Of a DNA stretch of 64,000 nt, positions 2,797 through 38,495 are shown one piece after another. Position 1 is the stretch's first letter; every line of letters begins with the position of its first letter. Origin of the DNA: Escherichia phage vB-Eco-KMB23; the sequence record OR525702.1. The stretch is one strand, 5' to 3'. The notes under the pieces were generated by a model, which saw nothing but the letters and a program-made list of their open reading frames with translations, ran no database searches and had not been told where the DNA came from. The position numbers were made by a program, and so were the translations under genes.

Positions 2797-3812
2797 TGTG
2801 TTGCCTCTACATATAACTGATTTGCGTATTGAATAAGTGCTTCGCGATCAGAATCAGTGATGTCTGGAATTGCATTAATGTATTCTTCCATCAATGTCTG
2901 AAGAGATTGAACTTCAACCTCTTCGCTATCATCTGACTCGACAGAGTTATCAATCTTTGACACAACTCGTAATGAATGCACAACTTTTTCTAGTTCAGAT
3001 TCGAACTTCGTCAGATTTTTGTCTACCTCAGTTACTATAACACGTACTGATAGATTTGTAAAATCTTTATAGTCAATTTTTCCCTTAAATGGATATTGAA
3101 TTCGACGATGCCAGGTAGTGTTGTTTGGAATAAATTCCATTCGTTCTGTTTCTGTATCAAACATCCAGAACCCACGAGGGTCATTCTCGTCACCTGCAGT
3201 TAGTGTCCATGGTGTCCCAATATATCTGACGTTTGCAGCCTCAGAGATAGTATGGAAGTGACCAGACCACACTTCTTTATAAGTCTTAAGGAAATCAGGT
3301 TCAAGACCATGAGATTTCATTCCTTTATAAAAATAAAATCCGTTCAGTTCCCAGTGACCAACGCAAAAAGAAGCAGATGAAGTTTTGATGTGCTCAAGAA
3401 TTTCACCAGTATTTTCTTCGCACATCCAAGGAATCAAATCAATCAAACACCCGTCAAAATCTACTGTAGTAGGCTTATCATATACTTTAACATTAGAATA
3501 TTTAGCCAAAAGCTCAGTAGAGGCATTTGGATGCATTACATTTTTGTAGTGGAGATCGTGATTTCCTACAATAGTATGTAATGTGATTCCAGCGTCATCA
3601 AGCATTTGAACTATTTCACGGGCAAACTCCATAGTTTTATGTGTGATTGCTTTTCGCACATCAAAAATATCACCATATTGAATCCATACAGTAATTCCAT
3701 TTTTCTTAGAATATTCTATCGCTTGCTTAATTCCATCAATTTGAATACCGCGAATCCACTCATCATCAGCTTTAACGCCTAAATGCCAATCACCTAAATT
3801 TAAAATTTTCAT
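2793..3812 (-). CDS. 47: Recombination endonuclease subunit gp47 (Mre11-like nuclease)
   Basis: 339 aa as in T4 gp47; phosphoesterase motifs LGDWHLG, GDIFD, GNHD, GHWE, GHFH. Confidence 0.9.
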   Translation of the reverse strand: MKILNLGDWHLGVKADDEWIRGIQIDGIKQAIEYSKKNGITVWIQYGDIFDVRKAITHKTMEFAREIVQMLDDAGITLHTIVGNHDLHYKNVMHPNASTELLAKYSNVKVYDKPTTVDFDGCLIDLIPWMCEENTGEILEHIKTSSASFCVGHWELNGFYFYKGMKSHGLEPDFLKTYKEVWSGHFHTISEAANVRYIGTPWTLTAGDENDPRGFWMFDTETERMEFIPNNTTWHRRIQYPFKGKIDYKDFTNLSVRVIVTEVDKNLTKFESELEKVVHSLRVVSKIDNSVESDDSEEVEVQSLQTLMEEYINAIPDITDSDREALIQYANQLYVEATQ

Positions 3813-36479: not shown

Positions 36480-36780
36480 CAACCTTGTCGGGGTTCCACC
36501 TGCTAAGGCAAGTGTTTGTACGAAACGCCGGGATTCGAACCCGGTTATTAAGTAGTTGACGCTACTCAATATTTTAAAAGGCCATATCTCGACCATATCC
36601 GAACGTTCCGTCAAAAACGCTACTCGGTTTACGGCAAACATATTTCCTCGAATCGATAATTCGGTGCGCCGTTTCTGCTGTGATAGTAAAGAGCCAGAAC
36701 ACAGTAAAACTGTGGGAGGAAACTATACTCCAGGGAACATCAGTCCGACGACTTACCGGTAGCGACCCGGTTTCTTAGTA
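36480..36780 (-). ncRNA. Putative stable small RNA region (T4 species 1/2 RNA-like), partly tRNA-like
   Basis: Non-coding stretch between tRNA cluster and a strong terminator; contains a perfect T-arm-like CCGGGTTCGAATCCCGG (minus strand) but no canonical cloverleaf found by eye. Confidence 0.25.
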
Positions 36781-37844: not shown

Positions 37845-38495
37845 TTATATATTGTTAATTTGATTTAGAATTCTTTTTGCTTGAGTATGACTTACACCAA
37901 TATGCTTAGCATATTTAGATAATTCACCACGTTTAGAAAAATCATATAATTTAGAAATTTCTATTCTTCTTTTTCTTTCATCCGCAGAAACTTTTGATTC
38001 GTTTGCTTTTGCTATTTTACGTTTAGCTTCTTGAGAATGAGTTTTACCAGCAAAGCCATTCTTCATTAATCCATTTGAAGACCATCCTTTTAATTTTCCG
38101 TTAGAATGTGCCTTTTTAACACCCAATGAAATTAATTCGCGTTGCTGATCTGTCATAGGATAATTATTTATATGATCCCATCCACCTTCACCGCCGAGTT
38201 TTAAATTATACACATCTGGTTTATTTAAAAACTCTTCTGTGACAATATTTTTCTCAGCTTCAAGCATAGATTCTTTATCATCAAAATACTCTAATATTTC
38301 TTTAGAAAAATTTTCTATACCATATTTATCTTGGGCTCTTTTTAATAATTTACCAGAACCCATATATCCATCATCTAAATTTTCGGTAGAATGCACACCA
38401 ATATAAATTTTATTATTAATTTTATTTGTTATTTTATAAAGATAAAAATGCATATCAGTCCCTAATAAAGAACTGAGCGTCTCACGACGAGTCAT
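37845..38495 (-). CDS. segB: GIY-YIG homing endonuclease (SegB-like) embedded in tRNA cluster
   Basis: GIY-YIG module FYLYKITNKINNKIYIGVHS; C-terminal basic helix-turn-helix-like region; start codon ambiguous (38495 or MHFYLYK at about 38453). Confidence 0.75.
   Translation of the reverse strand: MTRRETLSSLLGTDMHFYLYKITNKINNKIYIGVHSTENLDDGYMGSGKLLKRAQDKYGIENFSKEILEYFDDKESMLEAEKNIVTEEFLNKPDVYNLKLGGEGGWDHINNYPMTDQQRELISLGVKKAHSNGKLKGWSSNGLMKNGFAGKTHSQEAKRKIAKANESKVSADERKRRIEISKLYDFSKRGELSKYAKHIGVSHTQAKRILNQINNI

Follow-up and report, generated by a model that had tools for sequence, protein, structure and literature searches.

A gene for a GIY-YIG homing endonuclease lies within the tRNA operon of Escherichia phage vB-Eco-KMB23 (OR525702.1), and we examined it in a stretch of 64,000 nucleotides (nt) of that genome, referred to below as the window. 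The window belongs to a Tequatrovirus, that is, a T4-like coliphage, and 2.8 kb around the gene is 96 to 97% identical to RB18, AR1, teqdroes, and about 50 other records. ARAGORN and Rfam agreed on 10 tRNA genes, all on the minus strand and arranged as Gln-Leu-Gly-[ORF]-Ser-Thr-Met/Ile(CAU)-Tyr-Asn-His-Arg, where ORF denotes the open reading frame in question. The longest ORF between tRNA-Gly and tRNA-Ser extends from 38495 to 37845 on the same strand and specifies 216 amino acids (aa), leaving 4 nt (38499 to 38496, ATTT) after tRNA-Gly and 6 nt (37844 to 37839, ATATTT) before tRNA-Ser. A reading of the letters alone, hereafter the original prediction, had noticed a segB-like GIY-YIG ORF wedged between these two tRNAs, and this observation was confirmed by ARAGORN/Rfam, Pfam, PHROG, and AlphaFold/Foldseek. 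Its figure of about 5 to 6 nt to either tRNA holds in essence for the maximal ORF, but the true 5′ gap is probably 46 nt. Feature coordinates are collected in Table 1.

Comparison with the tRNA regions of T4 and T2, which the original prediction had called for, revealed an endonuclease-free slot flanked by the same tRNAs in both phages. T4 has the order Gln-Leu-Gly-Pro-Ser-Thr-Ile-[segB]-Arg-rnaD-rnaC, and its tRNA-Gly and tRNA-Ser are separated by a 10-nt spacer, tRNA-Pro, and a further 2 nt, whereas the window carries the endonuclease gene instead. The window tRNA-Gly is identical to that of T4, and tRNA-Ser is identical to its T4 counterpart except at the extreme 3′ end. The Gly-Pro-Ser order is also present in T2 and in PST, the latter of which has ...Tyr-[segB]-Arg, and in the window no endonuclease interrupts the Tyr-Asn-His-Arg stretch. 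Since T4 carries tRNA-Pro in this slot and segB elsewhere, between tRNA-Ile and tRNA-Arg, the two phages do not share one arrangement, and the endonuclease was correctly placed in the T4 tRNA-Pro slot.

The ORF matched the Pfam families GIY-YIG (PF01541; 26.8 bits versus a cutoff of 22.6) and SegE_GIY-YIG (PF19835; 25.7 bits versus a cutoff of 25) as well as PHROG 314, "homing endonuclease" (E value of 3.4e-55). A sequence search of the PDB returned only a marginal match to I-TevI (E 0.75), and a fold comparison was therefore needed. The AlphaFold model had a mean pLDDT (per-residue confidence) of 83.9, and its N-terminal domain matched the I-TevI catalytic domain, with a Foldseek probability of 1.0 and a TM score of 0.63 to 0.65 against 1MK0/1LN0. 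Residues Y6, Y17, G19, E67, and N83 were invariant across 35 homologues, and mutation of two of them (Y17A/G19A) kills T6 SegB (PMC13096335). On the evidence of sequence and modeled fold, the ORF is a genuine GIY-YIG homing endonuclease gene of the I-TevI/Seg family, with a predicted enzymatic activity. In the C-terminal half, a NUMOD3-like stretch at about 38054 to 38010 scored 19.4 to 20.2 bits, below the cutoff of 20.4, and a helix-turn-helix (HTH) was predicted at about 37925 to 37851 (ELSKYAKHIGVSHTQAKRILNQ), with an HTH_10 match at E 0.09. The AlphaFold helices span residues 102 to 117, 141 to 151, 157 to 167, and 177 to 201, with a pLDDT of about 93 over the last two, and the model combines a low-confidence linker at residues 124 to 131 with a confident terminal two-helix unit at 177 to 201. 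Foldseek matches of the C-terminal part to HTH domains were weak (probability of about 0.4), and an IMG/VR search with the C-terminal domain gave six matches only, distant and short.

Table 1. Features of the endonuclease locus and of the surrounding tRNA operon (window coordinates)
Feature	Position	Strand	Remarks
Candidate MotA-type middle promoter of the tRNA operon	38834-38809	minus	ATGCTTTA at 38834-38827, 12 nt, TATTAT at 38814-38809
tRNA-Gly(UCC), encoded CCA	38573-38500	minus	ARAGORN; Rfam 65.8 bits
Leader (5′ untranslated region) of the endonuclease gene, 46 nt	38499-38454	minus	98% identical to the PST/T6 segB leader
Endonuclease coding sequence (most likely extent)	38453-37845	minus	202 aa + stop; Met aligns with T4 SegB Met1
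GIY-YIG catalytic module, aa 1-96, Tequatrovirus segB type	38453-38166	minus	281/288 nt (98%) identical to PST segB
Linker and putative C-terminal DNA-binding module, class A	38165-37848	minus	86-88% DNA identity to KP13MC5-5
Right junction, 14 nt, ATATATAAATATTT	37852-37839	minus	Last sense codon ATA + stop TAA + 6-nt spacer
tRNA-Ser(UGA), right flank of the endonuclease	37838-37749	minus	ARAGORN, Rfam
rnaD	36775-36663	minus	Only 79% identical to T4 rnaD
rnaC	36656-36519	minus	Species 1 RNA, 97% identical to T4 rnaC
Intrinsic-terminator-like hairpin 3′ of rnaC	36468-36445	minus	Terminator scan: 10-bp stem, 6 GC pairs, then TTTTT

The two halves of the gene were found to have different closest relatives. 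DNA identities to PST segB and to the endonuclease genes of the Klebsiella Jiaodaviruses KP13MC5-5 and Mineola were, respectively, 98, 85, and 85% in the leader and 98, 71, and 72% in the catalytic domain (38453 to 38166), and they changed to 39, 86, and 35% in the first part of the C-terminal half (38165 to 38000) and to 44, 88, and 85% in its second part (37999 to 37860); megablast of Mineola against the second half of the window C-domain gave 93% over 112 nt. The breakpoint falls at the conserved GGATGGGATCATATAAAT (GGWDHIN; approximately 38183 to 38166), at the end of the catalytic domain. The synonymous divergence (dS) between the window gene and KP13MC5-5 is 2.17 on the N-domain side of it and falls to 0.35 on the C-domain side; the dS of the N-domain versus PST is 0.10. 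By BLASTP, the C-terminal half showed no similarity to the T4/PST SegB C terminus. Two kinds of tail were distinguished: class A, a predicted HTH of the form "...IGVSHTQA(K/R)RILN", occurs in the window, KP13MC5-5, Mineola, Aeromonas phage Aes012, and the trna.1 remnant of T2, and class B, "...IPEGW(F/R)KGRK", in T4, PST, and Karamvirus fGh-Ecl04. Judged by these alignments, the gene is a recombinant of two modules, the leader and catalytic domain of segB and a class A C-terminal half.

As the C-terminal half is unrelated to that of T4 SegB, the window protein is not a SegB orthologue in the strict sense; neither full-length homology to T4 SegB nor the same slot (before tRNA-Arg, after tRNA-Ile or tRNA-Tyr) was found. 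The label "segB-like" fits the leader and the catalytic half, which share 98% DNA identity with PST/T6 segB, and does not extend to the DNA-binding half, which is a different module. Deposited records name the gene variously as "segB, C-terminus divergent," "segD," or "truncated SegB-like," so that public records are inconsistent in its name and also give conflicting starts. The locus offers a clean natural example in which one "cutting head" with its regulatory leader is found on two alleles, with different DNA-binding tails and in different slots of the same tRNA array.

Translation most likely starts at the ATG at 38453 and not at 38495. In BLASTP, residues 15 to 131 of the window ORF align with residues 1 to 117 of T4 SegB at 82% identity, and the second Met (ATG 38453) therefore corresponds to the T4 SegB start. 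This position agrees with the annotated starts in PST, RB68, and Mineola and with the numbering of T6 SegB, in which Y17 and G19 fall in the IYIG motif (numbering from PMC13096335), and the ORF of KP13MC5-5 is intact and, at 202 aa, as long as the window coding sequence read from 38453. A Shine-Dalgarno sequence, AGGGA (38463 to 38459), is located 5 nt before this ATG. The original prediction had seen nothing resembling a ribosome binding site (RBS) at the predicted start; this is correct for ATG 38495, because the bases upstream of it are the acceptor end of tRNA-Gly, but not for the likely start. With a leader that carries a Shine-Dalgarno sequence before 38453, the "no RBS" puzzle is therefore resolved, the RBS being present and structurally masked.

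The leader contains the upstream in-frame ATG (38495 to 38493), a small hairpin (38489 to 38478), and a 9-bp hairpin (38476 to 38455), the 3′ arm of which contains AGGGA, and it has a computed fold of -14.1 kcal/mol (z of -2.6). The same 9-bp hairpin was found in PST and Mineola, where three one-sided base changes keep the pairing each time; distinct leader sequences among 102 records numbered three or four. In PST/T6 the leader follows tRNA-Tyr, and the 85% identical Jiaodavirus leader follows tRNA-Gly. Mineola and KP13MC5-5 have GTG as the upstream codon, which a 1-nt indel puts out of frame, so that what is conserved in the leader is the nucleic acid and not an encoded peptide. RBS sequestration is usual for T4 homing endonucleases, including I-TevI (review PMC2988022), and a hairpin at the T4 segB translation start was described earlier (PMC2330249); the T4 segB leader is unrelated to that of the window, and our recomputation of its hairpin over the Shine-Dalgarno sequence and AUG gave -19.4 kcal/mol (z of -6.8). 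Two other explanations of the leader were rejected. It could be the decayed 5′ half of a tRNA-Pro, as its ACTCGTCGTGAGACGCTCAGTT resembles by eye the start of T4 tRNA-Pro (CTCCGTGTAGCTCAGTT), but the 46 nt are segB leader. A late promoter that frees the RBS, as for I-TevI and T4 segB, was also considered, and the leader lacks the T4 late-promoter consensus, TATAAATA. The two such octamers on the endonuclease strand lie inside the ORF (38172 to 38165) and at the stop codon (37849 to 37842).

Relatives of the endonuclease occupy the corresponding slot in other phages. In Mineola and KP13MC5-5, the gene is inserted between tRNA-Gly and tRNA-Pro, and its last codons overlap tRNA-Pro. When the empty Jiaodavirus site was rebuilt as Mineola tRNA-Gly + AAATTA + tRNA-Pro, it was found uninterrupted and 100% identical in endonuclease-free Klebsiella phages, at least 80% of it being covered in 121 records versus about 14 to 17 filled records. 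By these sequence comparisons, the Jiaodavirus endonuclease is a textbook case of a mobile endonuclease gene that is polymorphic for presence and absence, and such precise-site polymorphism among close genomes was encountered in both Jiaodavirus and Tequatrovirus. The flanking tRNAs carry no "immunising" substitutions, and the insertion itself therefore presumably disrupts the target. Aes012 (Tulanevirus) has a full-length homologue (44% identity) between tRNA-Gly and tRNA-Pro, and tRNA-Pro(UGG) was the immediate neighbor in five of eight further lineages from metagenomes and genomes. The gap to the downstream tRNA is 5 nt in T4, PST, and Marzo, 3 nt in fGh-Ecl04, and 1 nt in Aes012, and it gives way to overlap in Mineola; such close spacing on this side is common to the family. 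A further relative was seen in another tRNA slot: T2 trna.1 (MH751506.1, locus 2929 to 3330), which lies between tRNA-Ser and tRNA-Met, where T4 has tRNA-Thr, is 34% identical (E 3e-16) to residues 84 to 198 of the window endonuclease, including the predicted terminal HTH, and lacks the GIY-YIG domain, so that its sequence suggests a class A SegB-like gene that has decayed or been truncated.

The original prediction had allowed that a tRNA was either replaced or displaced. Neither tRNA-Pro nor a tRNA-Pro-like sequence was found anywhere in the 64-kb window. In RB18, which has the same arrangement, no tRNA genes were found in 1 to 50 kb and 94 to 167 kb, and the cluster stands alone in 66.4 to 71.8 kb; the segments at 50 to 66.4 kb and 71.8 to 94 kb are covered solely by assumed collinearity with the window. 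This absence rules out a displaced tRNA-Pro for the window and the scanned parts of RB18, and replacement stands: as far as the scanned regions reach, tRNA-Pro has been lost, not moved. In Tequatrovirus, a C-domain at least 95% identical to that of the window was present in 55 records, which all share the same junctions, and Gly-Pro-Ser was present in 439 records. No Tequatrovirus record had both the endonuclease and tRNA-Pro at the slot, and a synthetic junction query for a Gly-endonuclease-Pro-Ser intermediate matched Klebsiella and Raoultella phages only. Gly-endonuclease-Ser and Gly-Pro-Ser behave as alternative alleles of one slot. The comparison thus bears out the observation in the original prediction, and its interpretation is partly supported.

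The cassette starts directly after CCAA, which belongs to tRNA-Gly in the window (3′ end ...CTCCAA, a CCAR motif) and to tRNA-Tyr in PST/T6. At the 3′ ends of tRNAs, T4 SegB favors cuts just 3′ of CCAR, and T2L tRNA-Gly is among its secondary cleavage sites (PMC2330249); by analogy, the shared boundary fits with breaks at tRNA 3′ ends having seeded the cassette into new slots. The 14 nt of the right junction are kept in RB18 and RB68 and resemble neither the 3′ end of T4 tRNA-Pro nor the Jiaodavirus sequence.

Our preferred reading, to which we assign a probability of about 0.7, is that the gene is a free-standing T-even SegB-family chimera that has replaced tRNA-Pro in the tRNA operon, is expressed from a polycistronic transcript under the throttle of the leader hairpin, and homes into Gly-Pro-Ser genomes. 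By analogy with T4 SegB (PMC2330249), the gene would be transcribed within a polycistronic tRNA precursor of about 2.4 kb from a conserved middle promoter 5′ of tRNA-Gln. The candidate promoter, positioned from its sequence, is directly 3′ of the trna.2 stop codon; the 111 nt 5′ of tRNA-Gln are approximately 97 to 99% identical to T4, PST, and RB68, with the MotA-box-like stretch invariant, and T4 segB is transcribed mainly from a middle promoter just upstream of the tRNA cluster (PMC2330249). The terminator-like hairpin after rnaC is the probable end of the operon transcript, and the T4 tRNA transcript terminates after species I RNA (PMC2330249). Within the endonuclease interval, counts of sigma-70-type promoters and terminators were not above those in shuffled controls, the sole "terminator-like" call being the Shine-Dalgarno hairpin itself. 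Translation would begin at AUG 38453, and as the Shine-Dalgarno sequence would be partly locked in the 9-bp hairpin, expression would stay low. The message would be cut on both sides by tRNA maturation, namely, by 3′ processing of tRNA-Gly just 5′ of the leader and by RNase P at the 5′ end of tRNA-Ser, 6 nt after the endonuclease stop, as at T4 segB/tRNA-Arg (PMC2330249). The original prediction had suggested that expression may depend on processing of a polycistronic tRNA precursor, which is plausible on this analogy; a limitation by processing of expression from the polycistronic tRNA transcript was proposed earlier for T4 segB (PMC2330249).

In a mixed infection, a small amount of enzyme would cut endonuclease-free genomes in or near the Gly-Pro junction, and recombinational repair from the carrier genome would convert Gly-Pro-Ser to Gly-endonuclease-Ser, such that the gene spreads and tRNA-Pro is deleted. 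The homology arms for this repair would be tRNA-Gly (plus Leu and Gln) on one side and tRNA-Ser (plus Thr and beyond) on the other. More specifically, the class A module may target the Gly 3′ end/Pro 5′ half of Pro-containing phages, a tentative proposal that we hold at clearly less than even odds. The window tRNA-Asn (37488 to 37414, minus strand) is identical to that of T2, while RB68 tRNA-Asn differs at several positions. The preferred T4 SegB cleavage site lies in T2L tRNA-Asn (PMC2330249), and the window phage is therefore a predicted recipient for T4-type segB. As T4 carries the Gly-Pro junction and the window phage the preferred target of T4 SegB, the two alleles may be reciprocal invaders. 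Homing endonucleases would in this way remodel the tRNA set of a phage, here through the replacement of tRNA-Pro. T2, in which an apparently decayed relative takes the place of tRNA-Thr, and T6, in which a deletion has left a Pro/Thr hybrid, may be further cases. A recent study linked phage tRNAs and SegB to the evasion of tRNA-targeting defenses (PMC13096335), and tRNAs added or removed by the endonuclease may therefore affect fitness. The open-access literature that we searched held no account of the module swap, of the Gly|Pro-slot lineage, or of the tRNA-Pro loss. We regard the locus as a tidy case of modular retargeting and endonuclease-driven tRNA turnover and not as a new mechanism.

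Several observations weigh against the homing chimera as drawn here. The target site of the window allele is read from insertion sites alone, and the tRNA-Pro beside the endonuclease of KP13MC5-5, the closest C-domain donor, differs in sequence from T4 and Mineola tRNA-Pro, so the T4 Gly-Pro junction may not be the cognate target. The NUMOD3 and HTH assignments score below curated cutoffs, the 14 nt at the right junction are unlike both the T4 tRNA-Pro 3′ end and the Jiaodavirus sequence, and the hairpin is modest (z of -2.6) and backed by one-sided compatible changes in three sequence types alone. In addition, no Gly-endonuclease-Pro-Ser intermediate that would mark the route of tRNA-Pro loss was found among Tequatroviruses, and the approximately 55 carriers are 97 to 99% identical, which fits vertical inheritance in a single sub-lineage as well as it fits recent spread. 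The last two points would also be expected if the gene were a stranded chimeric relic, no longer mobile and passed on vertically in one Tequatrovirus sub-lineage, which has no usable target or has been co-opted, e.g., for break-induced amplification of neighboring tRNA or anti-defense genes, as with T6 SegB. We consider this unlikely but worth weighing. The identical junctions of the Tequatrovirus copies agree with a single origin, the fusion of modules of different origin could have uncoupled catalysis from DNA binding, the decayed T2 trna.1, reduced to a binding domain, indicates that such genes do decay in the cluster, and a non-homing role is documented for T6 SegB (PMC13096335). The relic is, however, hard to reconcile with an ORF that is intact and as long as its Jiaodavirus relative, with conserved catalytic residues, and with nonsynonymous/synonymous ratios (dN/dS) of 0.34 in the C-domain (versus KP13MC5-5) and 0.08 to 0.10 in the N-domain; the intact frame and these ratios argue, at the sequence level, against a dead relic without proving activity. 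The carriers moreover span several species, with hosts in Escherichia, Shigella, Citrobacter, and Serratia, and differ in flanking gene content, e.g., with or without tRNA-His.

A separate question is where translation of the endonuclease begins. If it began at ATG 38495, 3′ processing of tRNA-Gly would yield a leaderless or nearly leaderless mRNA, on which ribosomes would melt the Shine-Dalgarno hairpin and synthesis would be coupled to tRNA maturation. A start codon does occupy this position in both leader families (ATG in Tequatrovirus, GTG in Jiaodavirus), the Jiaodavirus GTG opens a 13-codon upstream ORF ending 1 nt before the endonuclease AUG, and automatic gene callers chose the 216-aa form (cluster P0001). 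The homologous start in four related loci (L021, L022, L025, and L027) is 0 to 3 nt after tRNA-Pro and leaves no room for a leader. We nevertheless judge this start improbable, as the N-terminal extension is out of frame in Jiaodavirus and without counterpart in T4 SegB, a correctly spaced Shine-Dalgarno sequence precedes 38453, and in vitro activity has been shown for the T6 enzyme, whose numbering begins at the Met corresponding to 38453 (PMC13096335). Equally doubtful is the broader proposition that the endonuclease is made only from processed transcripts via a 5′-proximal start, be it ATG 38495, the Jiaodavirus GTG, or the FBB1-like start abutting tRNA-Pro; if this were true, the endonuclease dose would track the output of the tRNA operon. 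As for the four loci themselves, three are FBB1-like Erwinia phage loci (L021, L025, and L027; approximately 1198 to 1210), and they share with L022 (1200 to 1201) a TTG or ATG start codon 0 to 3 nt after tRNA-Pro(UGG). The sole Shine-Dalgarno-like sequence at these loci is the GGAG of the tRNA acceptor strand (...TATGGAGACCAAATTG), and the loci have no space for an RBS of their own, so that one may ask whether translation there is leaderless or coupled to processing.

Free-standing SegB-type endonucleases between phage tRNA genes are already well known (PMC2330249), and a 2026 survey covered 1832 SegB homologues and their tRNA association (PMC13096335). Like T4 SegB (Brok-Volchanskaya et al. 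2008, PMC2330249), the window gene is a free-standing GIY-YIG gene inside a T-even tRNA operon, with near-identical DNA up to the breakpoint and 82% aa identity in a 117-residue alignment that runs slightly beyond the domain boundary. Both genes end 5 to 6 nt before the next tRNA, a hairpin sequesters the translation start of each, and the middle promoter 5′ of tRNA-Gln is the presumed origin of both transcripts. They differ in slot (Ile|Arg in T4, which retains tRNA-Pro, versus Gly|Ser), in tail (class B "IPEGWFKGRK" versus the class A HTH), and in leader, the T4 hairpin being much stronger (-19.4 versus about -14 kcal/mol). T4 SegB targets the T-psi-C motif (GGTTCRANTCC) plus CCAR, best in T2L tRNA-Asn (PMC2330249), whereas the insertion sites are the guide to the target of the window enzyme; cleavage assays and phage crosses are on record for T4 SegB and, in part, for T6 SegB (PMC2330249, PMC13096335).

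T6/PST SegB (T6: Chihara et al. 2026, PMC13096335) shares with the window gene the leader and catalytic domain at 98% DNA identity and a cassette that begins directly after the CCA of a tRNA, but it follows tRNA-Tyr and has a class B C terminus; T6 SegB has documented cleavage activity and a part in the amplification of tRNA-Tyr against the Septu defense (PMC13096335). The Jiaodaviruses Mineola and KP13MC5-5 and Aes012 have in common with the window the class A C-terminal domain and tRNA-Gly as the left neighbor, and the Jiaodaviruses alone also have the homologous leader with the same Shine-Dalgarno hairpin. Unlike the window, these phages retain tRNA-Pro, overlapped or abutted by the last ORF codons, and the Jiaodavirus catalytic domain has only about 71% DNA identity to that of the window. 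The predicted architecture of the window protein, an N-terminal GIY-YIG domain, a flexible linker, and a putative C-terminal NUMOD3-type element with a putative terminal HTH, resembles that of I-TevI from the T4 td intron, which is likewise controlled through RBS sequestration (PMC2988022). I-TevI, in contrast, is intron encoded, contains a zinc finger, and is relieved of repression by a late promoter; no intron or zinc finger was identified in the window gene, and its leader is without the late-promoter consensus.

Minor features were also noted at and around the locus. The TATAAATA octamer at 37849 to 37842 (minus strand) overlaps the endonuclease stop codon, 3 nt before tRNA-Ser, and is kept in RB18 and RB68. 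It may be there by chance, because such octamers in the window (12 versus 10.4 expected) are no more frequent than chance predicts; if it were active, transcription of the downstream tRNAs would restart late in infection. In T6 (AP018814.1), segB (65756 to 66421) is misannotated as "serine recombinase," and the annotated tRNA-Thr (locus 717 to 643, minus strand) joins the 5′ end of tRNA-Pro (CTCCGTGTAGCTCAGT) to tRNA-Thr sequence. The interval missing in T6 runs from within tRNA-Pro through the whole of tRNA-Ser into the start of tRNA-Thr, and the hybrid acceptor stem appears mismatched; judged by its sequence, the Pro/Thr hybrid seems to have arisen when recombination between two tRNA genes deleted the DNA between them.

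In the window, the 5′ end of rnaD abuts or overlaps the stop codon of a 116-aa ORF (37125 to 36775). A 94-nt "tRNA-Lys" called by ARAGORN (36518 to 36611) was rejected, as it lies inside rnaC and the Rfam tRNA model gives no call there. The CAU-anticodon tRNA (37666 to 37592, minus strand) had no blastn match to T4 tRNA-Ile at E 1e-3 or better and is therefore a different gene from that of T4/T6/PST. A tRNA-His (37299 to 37224, minus strand) is present in the window and RB18 and absent from RB68, T2, and T4, and the tRNA set differs among close relatives of the window phage.

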